IMG/VR virus record: IMGVR_UViG_2534681835_000037
Location: 1 to 23,837 of that record
From: a virus
Lineage: Duplodnaviria; Heunggongvirae; Uroviricota; Caudoviricetes
DNA length: 23,837 nucleotides
Reading direction: 5' to 3' (one strand)
Part shown: positions 8,504-16,813 of the stretch, in pieces
Layout: the number at the start of each line of letters is the position of its first letter
How positions within the stretch are numbered: the stretch's first letter is position 1
The notes under the pieces: model-generated
What the model was told of the DNA's origin: nothing
Databases searched by the model: none
What the model saw: the letters and a program-made list of their open reading frames with translations, nothing else
Program-made: the position numbers and the translations under genes

Positions 8504-9193
8504 ATGAGTTTGATTGATTTAAGAGATGAATACGAAGAAAGAGCAAGAGATATTATGGAATTGCTTTCTCTTGCGTCATCTTTAGAGGCTCAGACTCAGC
8601 AGTTAGATCAGCAAACGCATAAAGATGAAATAGAATCAAATACCCTTAGGGTTAACATTTTAAAATCATCCGTGCACATGATGCTGTACAATCAGGTTGA
8701 AAACACTGCCAGAGGATGCATTGAGTCAATTTATGACCATTTGCAAGATAATGAAGTAAATTACGCATCACTCAGGGAGAAATTCCAAGTAAATATCTTG
8801 CACCGTATCATTTCAGATAATGAATCGGGAAAATCTCTTTATCAAAAAATTGGTTCCGATATATCTAAAAGGATCATTTCAGCCTCATTAAACATACGTA
8901 AAGAATTCAATGGTAATGTTTGCAAGTCTGTATTGCACAAAATAACACAAGCTTACGGAATAACTGTTGCAAACTCACCAGAGTGTAGAAATGGTGTTGA
9001 CTTAGATTTACTTAAAGATATCAGAAATGAGCTGGCACATGGAAGTACCAGCTTTTCTAAAAAAGGTCAAATAGACCCTTTAGAAGAAGTCAAATCGAGG
9101 TCAGAAAGAATTGATCTATATTTGCGTTTATTAATCAACTCAACAGAAAATTATATTACCTCTAACGGGTATTTATCCCCTCAACATGTCTGA
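8504..9193 (+). CDS. HEPN-like domain protein (putative RNase), translationally linked to the DUF262 gene
   Basis: 229 aa; start 2 nt after the DUF262 stop; C-terminal R-x4-H motif (DIRNELAHG) typical of HEPN active sites in a largely helical protein. Assignment is from motif and context only. Confidence 0.55.
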   Translation: MSLIDLRDEYEERARDIMELLSLASSLEAQTQQLDQQTHKDEIESNTLRVNILKSSVHMMLYNQVENTARGCIESIYDHLQDNEVNYASLREKFQVNILHRIISDNESGKSLYQKIGSDISKRIISASLNIRKEFNGNVCKSVLHKITQAYGITVANSPECRNGVDLDLLKDIRNELAHGSTSFSKKGQIDPLEEVKSRSERIDLYLRLLINSTENYITSNGYLSPQHV

Positions 9194-10202
9194 TAAATGT
9201 TTCCCCTATTATCTGACCAATTATAGGGGGAACAGCATTTCCAATCATTGTCCCCAATTTTTGGAATGAAAAAGGCGTCTCCTTGTCAAGGAATTTATAA
9301 TCCATTGGAAAGGATTGCAAAATCGCAGCTTCACGCAAAGTTATGGCGCGATTTTGCTCAGGATGGCCAAATCGTCCATTTCCATATCCATAACACTGGG
9401 TAGTTATCGTAGGGCTAGTATCGTCCCAAACCATCCGTCCATAAACGCTTTTATAGGTAGCACCTGAATTCTTTTTATGACAGTCTGCTCTAATTTCTTC
9501 AGGCCAGTCATCCCACGTACCACCAGGTAAAGAATGCATGATTCGTTTAAGATTGATATCCATCAATTTAGGCGAACGATGCAAGGGATCGCTTTCCAGC
9601 TTCTCACCTGCCCCTACTTTTGGCAACCTACCAATAGCATCCTTAACAGTAACTTTACGGCTAACTTTTTTTTGATCAAGGCTGATCGGCCCCAATTGGG
9701 AACCAATTAGAATTAATCTACGTCTATTTTGAGGTAAGCCATACTCAGAACATCTTACAACGTCGTACCACAAATGATATCCAAGAGTCTTTAATGCACT
9801 AACAAACCCTTCAAAAACCTTATGGTTTCTAAGTTGAGGAACATTCTCCATCGTCACAAGCTCTGGCATGACATCACTTACAAGCCTTTGAAACTCATAT
9901 AACAAACGCCACTTTGTATCGTCTTTACGGCTATTTGGATTACGATACTTGGAAAACGGTTGGCAAGGAGCACATCCAGCAAGCAATCTAATATTTCCTT
10001 CCTTGAACATAGCAGACACATCGCAGGATTGCAGTTCTGTAACTGACTGATTAATGAACTGCGTTAAAGGATTATTGCTCTCAATAGCAAAACGGCAGGA
10101 TTCATCAATATCAATACCATGAGAAACCTCAATCCCGGCTTTTTTTAGCCCAAAAGTTAAGCCCCCCGCACCACAAAAAATGTCTACTGCCTGAATGTTC
10201 AC
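9162..10202 (-). CDS. DNA (cytosine-5)-methyltransferase
   Basis: 346 aa; canonical m5C MTase motifs in order: I FCGAGG, IV GCAPCQPFS, VI TMENV, VIII QNRRR; GTG start at 10202 with GGAG RBS; 3' end overlaps the HEPN gene 3' end by 32 bp (convergent). Confidence 0.85.
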   Translation of the reverse strand: MNIQAVDIFCGAGGLTFGLKKAGIEVSHGIDIDESCRFAIESNNPLTQFINQSVTELQSCDVSAMFKEGNIRLLAGCAPCQPFSKYRNPNSRKDDTKWRLLYEFQRLVSDVMPELVTMENVPQLRNHKVFEGFVSALKTLGYHLWYDVVRCSEYGLPQNRRRLILIGSQLGPISLDQKKVSRKVTVKDAIGRLPKVGAGEKLESDPLHRSPKLMDINLKRIMHSLPGGTWDDWPEEIRADCHKKNSGATYKSVYGRMVWDDTSPTITTQCYGYGNGRFGHPEQNRAITLREAAILQSFPMDYKFLDKETPFSFQKLGTMIGNAVPPIIGQIIGETFIRHVEGINTR

Positions 10203-10265
10203 AAGATTCTCCGTTACTTTATCCTGGTATTATATACACATAAAAGTTGGGAAAGTAGAACGATT

Positions 10266-10634
10266 TTACATAGAACTTAAGTCATTGTAGTAAATGAAAA
10301 ATGACAAGCAGCCATCAATAAACCCCATTGCTGTTTGCATCTCTTTCCGTATTGTTCCATCTGAACATTTCCGTTTTTTAGCAATAGCGCGTAATGAGAT
10401 ACCAATAACAAAGTGAGCAATGATCAACTCATACTCTTCGGGTTTATACTTTCGCAACCGAGCCACACAACCGTCTATCATGATACCTTCGTCATCATCA
10501 CACTGGAGACGTGACTTTTTACCGTGTGGTAAAAGCCCCTTGAAGCCTGCTGCTATCGGCTGCCAGTCCACACCACTGTTATCTGCTGCAGCCCAGGCCC
10601 CCCAACGATCTAAAACTTCGTACATATCACGCAT
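10266..10634 (-). CDS. Late-gene antiterminator Q (QuuD-type)
   Basis: 122 aa; MRDMYEVLDRWGAWAA...IAAGFKGLL...Q.C.DD...C.ARL resembles my recollection of E. coli prophage Q proteins such as QuuD; lies between the replication genes and the late region. Confidence 0.7.
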   Translation of the reverse strand: MRDMYEVLDRWGAWAAADNSGVDWQPIAAGFKGLLPHGKKSRLQCDDDEGIMIDGCVARLRKYKPEEYELIIAHFVIGISLRAIAKKRKCSDGTIRKEMQTAMGFIDGCLSFFIYYNDLSSM

Positions 10635-10891
10635 CAGCGCAGTACCTCCTGCACCAGTTTTTCAAACTTACCAACTCTGGTTTCCAGCTCTGCCACACAA
10701 TCCACCAGCTCATCCACCGCCTTTTGTGTGCGGTGTTTTGCCAGCAGCAGATCACGCAGCGCCGGAGTAAGCTGCTTGCGGAGCGTATCCTTTGCCACGC
10801 TCGTTTTTTCCATCTGTTCAGCACAACGAAGCATCTCCTGCGCCTGCCGACGAAGTTGTTCCGGTGAAACAGTGATTGCTCTGTTGTTCAA
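10634..10891 (-). CDS. Hypothetical protein, translationally coupled to Q (TGATG overlap)
   Basis: 85 aa predicted helical protein; stop overlaps the Q start, and its start overlaps the DnaB-like stop. Confidence 0.5.
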   Translation of the reverse strand: MNNRAITVSPEQLRRQAQEMLRCAEQMEKTSVAKDTLRKQLTPALRDLLLAKHRTQKAVDELVDCVAELETRVGKFEKLVQEVLR

Positions 10892-12279
10892 AATAAACGC
10901 TCCGTTTTACTGCCCGACATGCGGTTATTGCTGTATCTGCGCGGATTGCCCGGCGTCATGGGTGTGGAAAGAACCCGGGCACTCTCCTGGTCCACAGGCA
11001 GAAAATGTCCGTTATGAAAACGCCGGTAAATGGTCCCGAGCGTGCCATTACGCTGTTTCGTGATGTTGATTTCTGCTATGCCTCTGGCCTGAGTTTCCGG
11101 GTTGTATACCTCATCCCTGTAAAGCATCAGAATGATGTCGGCATCCGCCTCGATTTCCCCGGAGTTTTTCAGGTCCGAGTTCATTGGGCGTTTATTGGGT
11201 CTGGATTCCACGCCGCGGGAGAGCTGGCTCAGAGCAATCAGCGGAAAACCGCCGGATTTTGCCAGGCTTTTAAGTCCCTTTGAGATTTCCCCCACAGCAA
11301 GGTCGTGACGCCCCGTGCTGCGGGTTTTAATCAGGCCGAGGTAATCGACCACAACCAGCGCCGTTTCCGGGTGTTTCATCCGGTGGTGCTTCGTGGTTGC
11401 ACATATCTCATCAATGGTCAGGTTTGCCTGGTCCACCATCCAGATATTGCGACCGGTCATCCGTCCCACCCCTTGTGAGAAACGCGCCCAGTCTTCATCT
11501 TCAAAGTGAGTGACAGATTTCAGGCGTGATACCGGCATTCCTCCAGCCGCAGATACCATGCGTTCACCAATCTGGATGTTCGCCATTTCCATTGTGAACA
11601 GAAGAACACCATGCCCCTGCTCAGTCACCTTGTCGATGATATCCAGCGCCAGTTCGGTTTTGCCCATTGACGGACGAGCCGCAATGAACACCAGGTCGCC
11701 GGGCTCCATGCCACCTGTTTTTGCGTCCAGCTCCTCAATACCGGTCATCAACGTTCTGGATTTCTCCAGTCCCTGATTCCGGCATTCAACACGCTCAACC
11801 ACCTCCGGAAGCACATCATCAATATGTATCGGCTGAATAATGCCCTTTTCCGTCGACAATGAAGCCATCATGTTCTGCGCATCCTTCAGGACATCTTCAG
11901 CTGCTTCACAGGTATGCGCATCACGTAATTTCTGCAGCGCCTCATTCAGTGTTTTTTCTGCATCACGCAATGCAGCATTGCGCCGCAACGCTGCAACATA
12001 GTGCTCCAGTGAAGACTTCACCCAGGTTTTACGCCCGGTATCAGTAATCACCGGAGCAAGTTCCGGCATTTCATTACACAGCAGCACAGGATCAATCACA
12101 CCTGAAACACGAGCCTGTCGGCAGATGCCTGTGTAGATATCCCTATACGCTCGTACAGAAAAAACGTCCGCTGGCAGTGTGGCCAGAATATCCATCACTT
12201 CATGATCTGCCCCACGCAGAAAAAACGCGCCAATGACAGCGCCTTCCAGATCATCGTTACGCCATACTGGAGTGGTCAT
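10888..12279 (-). CDS. Replicative DNA helicase, DnaB family
   Basis: 463 aa; Walker A (ARPSMGKTELAL), RecA-like C-terminal domain and DnaB-like N-terminal domain; ATGA overlap with the upstream DnaC-like gene. Confidence 0.85.
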   Translation of the reverse strand: MTTPVWRNDDLEGAVIGAFFLRGADHEVMDILATLPADVFSVRAYRDIYTGICRQARVSGVIDPVLLCNEMPELAPVITDTGRKTWVKSSLEHYVAALRRNAALRDAEKTLNEALQKLRDAHTCEAAEDVLKDAQNMMASLSTEKGIIQPIHIDDVLPEVVERVECRNQGLEKSRTLMTGIEELDAKTGGMEPGDLVFIAARPSMGKTELALDIIDKVTEQGHGVLLFTMEMANIQIGERMVSAAGGMPVSRLKSVTHFEDEDWARFSQGVGRMTGRNIWMVDQANLTIDEICATTKHHRMKHPETALVVVDYLGLIKTRSTGRHDLAVGEISKGLKSLAKSGGFPLIALSQLSRGVESRPNKRPMNSDLKNSGEIEADADIILMLYRDEVYNPETQARGIAEINITKQRNGTLGTIYRRFHNGHFLPVDQESARVLSTPMTPGNPRRYSNNRMSGSKTERLF

Positions 12280-13163
12280 GCAGCCACACCTCCAATATGC
12301 GCACGATAGCTGGGCCAGTTAAACGACAACCAGTTGCGTCCCCCGTCTGTGATCCTGTCGGCAATGCGGGGGCTGATGAACGCCCACAACTCTTCCGGTG
12401 AAAGGTTGCTGATCAGGATGGTGGGCAGGATGCTTTCGTACCGGGCATTGATAATTTCCTGCAAAATAGCCATTTCAGCCGCGCTACCAAACTGGACACC
12501 CACTTCGTCGATAATCAGCAGATCCAGTGATGCATAATGCTCAATCACCTCATCCGCAGTTTTTTCGCTGTCATTCCGCCAGCAGTTTTTCACAGCCCGG
12601 GTCAGGCGCATCACGTCGGTGATCTCAACACTGGCGAGATAGTTGCGGATGACATATTTTGCCATCGCAACCGCCAGGTGATTTTTACCGGTGCCACAAC
12701 TGCCAGTCAGCACGAGATTTGTGCCATTCTCCAGAACATCCGCCCAGTTTTCGGCATAGCGACGACAGGCAGCAAGATTTCTGGCTGCGTCAGGATTAAT
12801 CTCCTGATAGTTTTCAAACTCACAGTCACGAAAACGCAGTGCAATTCCGGCGTTATCAGTCAGTTCTTCCGCCTTCAGGGACGACAACTCCATAATCACA
12901 TCGTTGATTTCAGCACTCAGGCAGTGAGGACAGTGTGAAATTTTCTCTCTGTCCTCGCCATTACGATCCCCCCACACCAGAATATGCGTGTGATATTCGC
13001 CATGTTTTTCGCAATATCCGCGACCTTCACGCATCCGGCAGGAACGATAAGGCCACGGTTTTTCCCCAGTCTCCGCAAACGCCATCTCAGACCGTAACTC
13101 ATCCATCCGCGCCTGTAGTCTTGTTTGTTGTTCACGCAGGTTAAACGTCATCATCGCTGTCAC
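12276..13163 (-). CDS. DnaC-like helicase loader (IstB-like AAA+ ATPase)
   Basis: 295 aa; Walker A GSCGTGKNHLAVAMA, Walker B LLIIDEVG; N-terminal Cys/His-rich segment. Confidence 0.85.
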   Translation of the reverse strand: MTAMMTFNLREQQTRLQARMDELRSEMAFAETGEKPWPYRSCRMREGRGYCEKHGEYHTHILVWGDRNGEDREKISHCPHCLSAEINDVIMELSSLKAEELTDNAGIALRFRDCEFENYQEINPDAARNLAACRRYAENWADVLENGTNLVLTGSCGTGKNHLAVAMAKYVIRNYLASVEITDVMRLTRAVKNCWRNDSEKTADEVIEHYASLDLLIIDEVGVQFGSAAEMAILQEIINARYESILPTILISNLSPEELWAFISPRIADRITDGGRNWLSFNWPSYRAHIGGVAA

Positions 13164-15819: not shown

Positions 15820-16526
15820 CATCGCTGCCAACCAATAACCTGAAATAACCCCATTTTCGGGTGATACCAGCGAGTCCCTCGCGGTTCTGCTTCCTCCATA
15901 ACCCGATAAAAAGCAGCCATAAACGGTTCCACAGCAACAATTGCGCGACGTGACAACAATCCGTCCGGCGTCATGAACTCATGTGTGTCTGTAGGAATTT
16001 GATAGGCGTTCACCAGATTGCGGCATTTATCATCTGACAAACCGGTTTTTGCTTTCAGTTGGCGATATCCGGCATAGCCCTCACGAATAGTGCCCTTTTT
16101 AATTTGCTCGACTGTTTCAGCAACGTGGCTGACTTTTTCTTCCACCTGAGTGATCCGTTTCTGTTGGCGAACGGCTTCAAGAGCCATCGCGGCAACCATT
16201 TCGATTTCGCTCATTGGCTTACGGATCTGTTCTTCCAGTTCGCGCCAGCGATCTACCAGGCGAGCTGTGAATTCAGGACAGAGCTGTGCGACGACAATGA
16301 TGCTGTCGCGCTTACCTCGTTCACCTTCGAATACATACGCGCTAGAAAATCGGCGAGGCCCAAGTGATTGTTTATTCTCAATTTCCACAGTCTGTGGAAA
16401 TTGGATGATTCCCTTTTTAGCCAGTGTTTCAATAGTTCTCTTAACACTATCTGGTCGGCTTCCCACCAGCTCTGCGATCTCAACGCTGGTCATGGATGCT
16501 TTGCCGTTAAAAATTGCGGTGTTCAT
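15819..16526 (-). CDS. Rha/ORF6N-type antirepressor-family regulatory protein
   Basis: 235 aa; N-terminal motif (FNGKASMTSVEIAELVGSRPDSVKRTIETLAKKGII) typical of phage Rha/antirepressor N-domains; start overlaps the Cro-like stop (ATGA). Confidence 0.5.
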   Translation of the reverse strand: MNTAIFNGKASMTSVEIAELVGSRPDSVKRTIETLAKKGIIQFPQTVEIENKQSLGPRRFSSAYVFEGERGKRDSIIVVAQLCPEFTARLVDRWRELEEQIRKPMSEIEMVAAMALEAVRQQKRITQVEEKVSHVAETVEQIKKGTIREGYAGYRQLKAKTGLSDDKCRNLVNAYQIPTDTHEFMTPDGLLSRRAIVAVEPFMAAFYRVMEEAEPRGTRWYHPKMGLFQVIGWQR

Positions 16527-16813
16527 TGTTTATCTCCTGCGTGTATTCCATCCGCTCTGTGTGGTGAACTTGGATTTAGGCTTTTGCGTAACAAGTTAGG
16601 AATTCCATCTTCAGGGTGAGGATAAAGATCTGGCCTTAAGCCATGAGGCGTAACCTTCCATGCAACTACTTCACATACTCGTAAAACGAAACGAGCAGGA
16701 ATTGTGCTTTTTGAAAACCACTGATTCACCGCTTGCGGCGTCACACCAAGATTTCGCGCTATGGCATTTTGCGCAATTAATGCACGAAGTTTGTCGTAAT
16801 CATTTCCTTCCAT
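16523..16813 (-). CDS. Cro-like HTH regulator, first gene of the early-right operon
   Basis: 96 aa; HTH segment (IARNLGVTPQAVNQWFSK); divergent from the CI-like repressor across a 130-bp AT-rich operator region. Confidence 0.55.
   Translation of the reverse strand: MEGNDYDKLRALIAQNAIARNLGVTPQAVNQWFSKSTIPARFVLRVCEVVAWKVTPHGLRPDLYPHPEDGIPNLLRKSLNPSSPHRADGIHAGDKQ

Follow-up and report, generated by a model that had tools for sequence, protein, structure and literature searches.

Genes for HEPN proteins of the MAE_28990 family have been described in association with genes for a ParB nuclease and a DNA methylase (Anantharaman et al. 2013, Biol Direct 8:15, PMC3710099), in a computational account that deals with neither mechanism nor target motif nor phage context. 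A DUF262 protein is paired with a HEPN protein in PD-T4-2, an anti-T4 system of Escherichia coli (Vassallo et al. 2022, PMC9519451), and NsnA, the sensor of the Menshen system (NsnABC), combines a ParB-DUF262 domain with a ParBDB DNA-binding domain (PMC12065111). In the Q21-type late cassette of lambdoid phages, the antiterminator gene Q is followed directly by the late promoter pR', the Q binding element (QBE), a pause element and the terminator tR' (Yin et al. 2019, bioRxiv 10.1101/651190). Here, we analyse a stretch of 23,837 nucleotides of a virus of the Caudoviricetes (IMG/VR record IMGVR_UViG_2534681835_000037, positions 1 to 23,837; hereafter "the window"), in which a gene for a 5-methylcytosine (m5C) DNA methyltransferase, referred to below as the methylase, follows Q. 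We put at roughly 0.7 the probability that this methylase is the self-marking enzyme of a mobile, restriction-modification (RM)-like defence cassette, located between Q and its cognate pR' in a lambdoid prophage.

The three components of the operons described in 2013 are all found in the window, i.e. a PF18737 HEPN protein with an Rx4H motif, a DUF262/ParB-like protein and an adjacent methylase (coordinates of all features are collected in Table 1). Two aspects distinguish the window copy: it lies between Q and pR', and its methylase gene is convergent on, and overlaps, the HEPN gene. By its sequence, the methylase is an intact C-5 cytosine DNA methyltransferase, with activity predicted from that sequence. 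It scores 183.4 bits against PF00145 (cut-off 22, E=9.5e-54, residues 4-336) and 121.4 bits against TIGR00675 (cut-off 100.65), and its translation contains catalytic motifs I (FCGAGG), IV (APCQPFS), VI (MENVP), VIII (QNRRR) and X (GNAVPP), all of them invariant among 22 homologues. The original prediction of a phage-borne m5C methylase is thus borne out. The GTG at 10202 is the earliest start codon past the in-frame stop, and the same start is used in RefSeq, where the identical protein is WP_001025378.1. A comparison of the target-recognition domain with characterised methyltransferases, which had been suggested as a check, did not yield an alignable one: a PDB sequence search returned only distant matches (DNMT1, M.HaeIII and M.HhaI; the best, DNMT1 and M.HaeIII, at 1e-22 to 1e-16). 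A literature search for accession WP_001025378 found no paper naming it. The methylome paper on sequence type 131 (ST131) concerns strain EC958, in which Dcm and M2.EcoMI are the only predicted m5C makers.

The HEPN protein scores 60.4 bits against PF18737 (cut-off 26.8) and 33.1 bits against PF18735. Its Rx4H motif spans R174-H179, and residues R174, N175, A178 and H179 are each kept in at least 93% of 34 homologues. In the DUF262 protein, the motifs QRxxxW, DGxQR and FxxxN are conserved (33 homologues); profile searches found no DUF1524 nuclease domain in it. Neither a restriction endonuclease fold nor an HNH domain was detected in any cassette protein in Pfam and PADLOC searches, and no NCBIfam model matched the HEPN or DUF262 proteins.

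How does this trio compare with named defence systems? The pairing of DUF262 with HEPN is shared with PD-T4-2. However, the DUF262 protein is closer to NsnA (5.6e-46, residues 16-313) than to PD-T4-2_A (4.3e-27), and at E<=0.01 the HEPN protein has a single PADLOC match, RTasHEPN (0.0078), with no PD-T4-2 or other named-system model among its hits, so that only one of the two PD-T4-2 components is recognised. In addition, the excerpted account of PD-T4-2 in PMC9519451 mentions no methylase, whereas the window cassette has one. As for Menshen, the NsnA-like DUF262 protein is accompanied in the cassette by neither the ABC ATPase NsnB nor the effector NsnC. Going by these profile comparisons, the cassette is neither Menshen nor PD-T4-2 proper. 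The methylase also matches, over their full length, the PADLOC profiles DrmMII of DISARM class 2 (4e-85) and DruM of Druantia (4.9e-73), but the window holds no partner genes of either system. Finally, the window resembles type II RM systems with convergent R and M genes in that a methylase, expected to be self-marking, sits beside convergent effector genes on a mobile low-GC cassette. It differs from them in having no recognisable restriction endonuclease fold, the effectors being a ParB-like nucleoside triphosphatase (NTPase) and a HEPN protein.

The boundaries of the cassette are marked by BLAST breakpoints. DNA homology to phage mEp460 breaks off within the 3' end of Q, at 10312, and restarts at 7296; homology to phages carrying Shiga toxin (Stx) 1a likewise ends at 10312. 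The cassette takes the place of whatever its relatives have between Q and pR'. The last ~15 codons of Q (10266-10311, ...FFIYYNDLSSM) are junction sequence absent from other Q genes. Along the window, GC content falls from 50-56% to 35-42% between ~5500 and 10400. The 5.5 kb of the window that were tested are 99.8% identical to a prophage of E. coli O111:H8 strain 8E, and the cassette is also known from EcPF16-type prophages. It follows Q in ST131-type prophages, in a second E. coli variant (~91% identity), in E. ludwigii (Enterobacter) and in S. bongori, where the prophage is decayed. Among complete E. coli genomes, 107 of 5426 carry it, many of them ST131.

The homologue of the late promoter lies on the far side of this insert. 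Q itself belongs to the Q21/933W family, whose assignment to PF06530 is from PMC9388147: it scores 159.7 bits against PF06530 (cut-off 26), its direct match to the Q21 structures 6P18 and 6JNX being weak (E=0.0012, residues 8-86). The C-terminal ...LGVRLEMD kept in the Q proteins of 933W, H-19B, Stx2_112808 and mEp390 is missing from the window Q and its close relatives (113-122 aa). A block of the minus strand, 1.9 kb downstream of the methylase stop and reading TAACGCGTACGCAAAAAGTATTATATCGTGTTAAGAGTGGTTACTTCGCCACACAACTTAAACCCGCCGCTGAGCGGTTTTTTT, matches in BLAST the 933W features annotated as pR', qut and rho-independent terminator, which overlap the 933W Q stop. In 933W, H-19B and Stx2_112808 this block stands directly at the Q stop. 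In Stx1_EH1995, vB_EcoS-569R4, mEp460 and Klebsiella P7641 (Q 83-90% identical), two to three opposite-strand genes follow immediately after the Q stop, and the conserved block of ~90 bp comes after them; in Stx1_EH1995 it is ~400 bp upstream of stx1A. In Stx phages the late promoter drives toxin expression, and a position upstream of stx1A is as expected. Thus, the window shares with the Q21/933W late cassette a PF06530 Q and a 933W-homologous block, and differs from it by the 3-kb insert between Q and promoter and by the altered C-terminus of Q.

All phages compared share the TGnTAAGAGTGGTTAC of this block and its hairpin with T-run, and changes in the hairpin preserve pairing. Two candidate -10 hexamers are present, but no single -35 or exact -10 could be fixed. 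The 16-nt segment before the -10 varies with the type of Q: it is TAACGCGTACGCAAAA in the window, TTAGTGCGGTCCGCAAAA at 61% Q identity and TTTACGATCGTAAAAA at 45-47%. This sequence covariation is the behaviour expected of a Q binding element, and we infer that the segment is a candidate QBE. With the copies of the block in comparison loci L003 (~6040-6140), L004 (~5370-5470), L005 (~6240-6340) and L006 (1180-1262), the window copy constitutes a natural covariation series for binding elements of the Q21 family. In the window, a second terminator-like hairpin with a T-run (7158-7179, minus strand) lies ~40 nt past the first (7213-7231), mirroring the two terminators that follow pR' in 933W.

Could the methylase nevertheless be expressed late? 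The original prediction had placed it first in a Q-dependent late operon, or under a pR'-like promoter in the gap between Q and the methylase, so that it could modify progeny DNA and might depend on leaky expression in the lysogen. The gene arrangement invites this: the methylase is indeed the first gene on the same strand after Q, 63 bp away, with a GTG start and a GGAG ribosome binding site (RBS) 6 nt ahead of it, and in canonical Q21-family phages pR' comes immediately after Q. The gap also holds, as had been noticed, a TATAAT without an acceptable -35, as confirmed both by reading the sequence (the hexamers 16-18 nt upstream, ACTTTC, TACTTT and CTACTT, share at most 1-2 positions with TTGACA) and by a consensus promoter scan, which called no minus-strand promoter in 10203-10265. 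Three observations stand against a late methylase. Firstly, motif searches for QBE-like, sigma-dependent pause element (SDPE)-like and pR'-type elements found none in the gap, the matches in the window being confined to 7253-7296; the sole pR'-like block, with its terminator, lies past the cassette. Secondly, there is no promoter-proximal terminator in the gap for Q to overcome: the scan found none, and the predicted RNA fold is not more stable than that of shuffled sequence (z = +1.18). Thirdly, the TATAAT is not a property of Q loci. In the window it ends 26 nt before the methylase start, and an exact TATAAT has the same position in Enterobacter, S. bongori and Providencia, the last of which has no Q; weaker -10-like hexamers are found ~27-29 nt upstream of the methylase start in the Halomonas (TAGAAT) and Pseudomonas (TACCAT) copies. 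The GGAG RBS, too, is shared by the cassettes of E. coli, Enterobacter, S. bongori and Providencia. Since the hexamer is kept in the Q-free Providencia copy, the -10 belongs to the cassette and is independent of Q. Because the pR'-like block is downstream of the methylase and no pR' elements are present in the gap, the methylase is upstream of pR' and outside the Q-dependent late operon. On this sequence evidence it is not a Q-dependent late gene, and we regard late, Q-driven expression as very improbable. The methylase is most likely an ordinary early or lysogenic gene.

The second line of evidence comes from the company the methylase keeps. The convergent trio occurs in five genera, in Enterobacter and S. 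bongori and, without Q context, in Providencia, Halomonas and Pseudomonas. The Providencia trio is in an island beside an integrase (methylase 63% identical), the Halomonas trio is chromosomal (57%) and the Pseudomonas trio is at a prophage end (56%). A wider survey, limited to one genome per species, yielded 80 loci with methylases of 49-56% identity; the phyla represented include Proteobacteria, Cyanobacteria, Actinobacteria, Acidobacteria, Firmicutes and Planctomycetota. In 28 of the 80, both a DUF262 and a HEPN gene were complete and immediately adjacent, in three gene orders: convergent (9 loci), DUF262-HEPN-methylase (15) and methylase-DUF262-HEPN (4). None of these 28 complete loci has a Q gene next to the trio. 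As linkage is kept across phyla despite three gene orders, the trio is best viewed as a functional unit.

This bears on the idea that the methylase is an orphan, guarding phage or host DNA against an unrelated restriction system or acting epigenetically, and merely adjoining an independent, type IV-like DUF262/HEPN pair. Orphan methylases are common in phages, the methylase clade has several alternative neighbours, and in the excerpted accounts of PD-T4-2 (PMC9519451, PMC10952713) DUF262 and HEPN work without a listed methylase. Yet the window HEPN protein matched no PD-T4-2 model in PADLOC, the association was recorded independently (PMC3710099), and chance proximity does not explain genes that are adjacent, and often overlapping, across phyla. 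We therefore consider an orphan methylase unlikely. The other partners found with members of the clade at ~50-55% identity (L018/L019, 5001-8016, and loci L023-L096) are a GHKL-ATPase protein of 560-750 aa (16 loci), an SNF2-like helicase of ~1050-1150 aa in a DISARM-like setting (15 loci) and Vsr (16 loci). By its neighbours in sequence data, the methylase clade is a defence-associated lineage.

How would a self-marking methylase be supplied with the proper timing? Being the conserved partner of the DUF262/HEPN pair, it would have to be made in the lysogen, and the leaky lysogenic expression envisaged in the original prediction would be an unlikely design. In the lysogen, it would be transcribed from a weak constitutive promoter carried by the cassette, with a perfect -10 and no -35, and would mark a cytosine motif on host and prophage DNA alike; the DUF262/HEPN pair would then spare self DNA and act on unmarked invaders. 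Upon induction, early right transcription through cro, the replication genes and Q could run on into the methylase and raise its level. Read-through is expected because there is no terminator after Q and the genes from cro to Q are tightly packed, and it is the part of the earlier proposal that remains plausible, as opposed to a late promoter in the gap. Beyond the methylase, such transcription would continue antisense across the HEPN and DUF262 genes. Q-dependent late transcription would start only at the pR'-like block, leaving the methylase out.

The convergent overlap of the methylase and HEPN genes was correctly identified earlier. Of the other convergent trios, those of Enterobacter, S. 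bongori, Providencia and Pseudomonas have overlaps of 32-65 bp at the 3' ends, while the Halomonas copy has a gap instead. The antisense interplay that had been proposed from this overlap is possible in the window but is not a conserved property, as 19 of the 28 complete trios are co-directional. An inverted repeat close to the HEPN stop was considered as a conserved bidirectional terminator and rejected: it is kept in the enteric copies only and not in those of Providencia, Pseudomonas and Halomonas, and it has no U-tract. For the DUF262-HEPN pair, a candidate promoter can be read from the sequence; it agrees with the consensus at 8 of 12 positions, which is below the scan threshold, and an ATTGTA/TACAAT element is present in all prophage copies of the cassette. 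This promoter stands back-to-back with the pR'-like block and has its -35 (7283-7288) within the QBE-like segment, so that Q binding might influence expression of the effectors.

The manner in which the mark is read can be stated with less confidence than the overall picture. The simplest reading follows RM logic: m5C would act as a self-mark that restrains the DUF262 sensor, which would otherwise release the HEPN effector. The opposite, licensing logic is also conceivable: by analogy with SspABCD-SspE, self m5C would be sensed by the DUF262 NTPase in order to arm or position HEPN, the methylase being the activating component. SspE uses its DUF262 domain to sense the phosphorothioate mark of its own host, modified cytosines are sensed by GmrSD (PMC12065111, PMC10952713), and the window protein is closest to the sensor NsnA. 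However, a nuclease activated by m5C beside an m5C methylase would risk self-damage, and in the classic type II RM arrangement the genes for methylase and effector converge, so we consider licensing improbable in this cassette. A more elaborate scheme, which we would rate only slightly higher and still as a doubtful one, is an epigenetically gated abortive infection: the DUF262 NTPase would read m5C and switch on a HEPN RNase, the cassette would be wired to the prophage switch by early read-through and antisense transcription and by Q shutting off the effector promoter at the QBE, and the Q-pR' junction would be a dedicated cargo site.

Several observations count against our view of the methylase as the self-marking enzyme of an RM-like cassette. 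Proteins of the HEPN superfamily are mostly RNases and, with a DUF262 protein that has no DNA endonuclease domain, a classical DNA-cutting arm is not evident. About 60% of the related methylases have other partners, the clade not being exclusive to the trio. The prophage that holds the S. bongori copy is decayed but retains a remnant of Q, so that this copy is not independent evidence. The methylase promoter has neither a -35 nor a TGn extension and is a candidate only, and the pR' and qut features of 933W are labelled "putative" in the record. Lastly, other logics are conceivable, since modified DNA is what the DUF262 proteins of the GmrSD and SspE systems sense (PMC12065111, PMC10952713).

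As regards the wider context, the window is a lambdoid prophage in which late and early-right genes are on the minus strand. Judging from the arrangement of cI and cro, the early right operon ends with Q and the methylase. Beyond them on the same strand come a nanS-p/DUF6645-like gene, DUF826, lysozyme, Rz and DUF1441, to which RefSeq adds a holin in the 8E prophage. The nanS-p/DUF6645-type esterase (3882-5853, minus strand) is a single coding sequence of 648 aa in NZ_CP077465 and is split in the window into several open reading frames (ORFs; 3882-4310, 4238-4645, 4431-4811 and 4618-5853), a pattern that points to frameshifts or to errors of sequencing. An opposite-strand ORF (6127-6453, plus) within a low-GC patch (5854-6935) sits between this gene and the late terminator, at the position of stx in Stx phages; it is annotated as anti-adaptor IraM in RefSeq (NZ_CP077465) and has no Pfam match. 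Coverage of at least 80% of the 5.5-kb query 5400-10900, which includes this patch, is reached in only one complete E. coli genome.

In related phages, the Q-pR' junction is occupied by different cassettes of two to three opposite-strand genes (L003, 3879-5986; L004, 3855-5250; L005, 3845-6206; L001, 3359-4765; L103, 928-1339). Seven proteins from these other cassettes were scanned: none had a PADLOC match, six had no Pfam match and one was NA37/NdpA-like. From these sequences, the junction looks like a recurrent cargo site, possibly one with defence genes.

Table 1 Features of the methylase locus and its surroundings in the window.
Feature	Position	Strand	Description and basis
pR'-like late regulatory block	7210-7296	-	Homologous to 933W pR'/qut/tR'; one copy in window
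Terminator-like hairpin, then T7	7231-7220, then 7219-7213	-	Found by scan
Element TGTTAAGAG	7268-7260	-	Within pR'-like block
-10 candidate TATCGT	7273-7268	-	Within pR'-like block
-10 candidate TATTAT	7278-7273	-	Within pR'-like block
Candidate QBE TAACGCGTACGCAAAA	7296-7281	-	Homology to 933W annotation and covariation with Q type
Candidate DUF262-HEPN promoter, TTGCGT-17 nt-TACAAT	7283-7311	+	Read from sequence; ends 32 nt before ATG
Three-gene cassette, ~3 kb	7297-10311	methylase -, HEPN +, DUF262 +	Low GC, ~35-41%; BLAST breakpoints and composition profile
DUF262/ParB-like (GmrSD_N) protein	7344-8501	+	385 aa; PF03235, E=1.1e-25
HEPN protein, MAE_28990 family	8504-9193	+	229 aa; PF18737, PF18735; convergent with methylase
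Methylase/HEPN 3'-end convergent overlap	9162-9193	both	32 bp; ORF coordinates
m5C DNA methyltransferase	9162-10202	-	346 aa, GTG start; PF00145, TIGR00675, motifs in translation
Inverted repeat, 12-bp stem	9198-9234	+	Starts 5 nt past HEPN stop, inside methylase 3' coding region (codons VPPIIGQIIGE)
Q-methylase gap, 63 nt	10203-10265	-	Q stop TAA at 10268-10266; TATAAT and GGAG inside
GGAG RBS	10212-10209	-	In gap
TATAAT	10234-10229	-	In gap
Antiterminator Q, Q21/933W family	10266-10634	-	122 aa; PF06530
DnaB	10888-12279	-	Followed by small ORF, then Q
DnaC-like	12276-13163	-	
cro-like	16523-16813	-	Two Rha-family genes follow on minus strand
cI-like repressor	16941-17636	+	

The methylase is therefore a standard m5C enzyme in a type of operon described computationally in 2013, carried here as prophage cargo. 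Its position holds a lesson for reading gene order, namely that the first gene after Q need not be a late gene where cargo separates Q from pR'. Readings of the methylomes of the 107 carriers among 5426 complete E. coli genomes should assume that the methylase is expressed in the lysogen and early, and the E. coli prophage copy offers a convenient place in which to study a trio that is widespread across phyla. More broadly, and more speculatively, a whole lineage of Q21-family phages may carry kilobases of cargo between Q and pR'; the junction may be mined for new defence genes and natural covariation may be used to derive QBE specificity.

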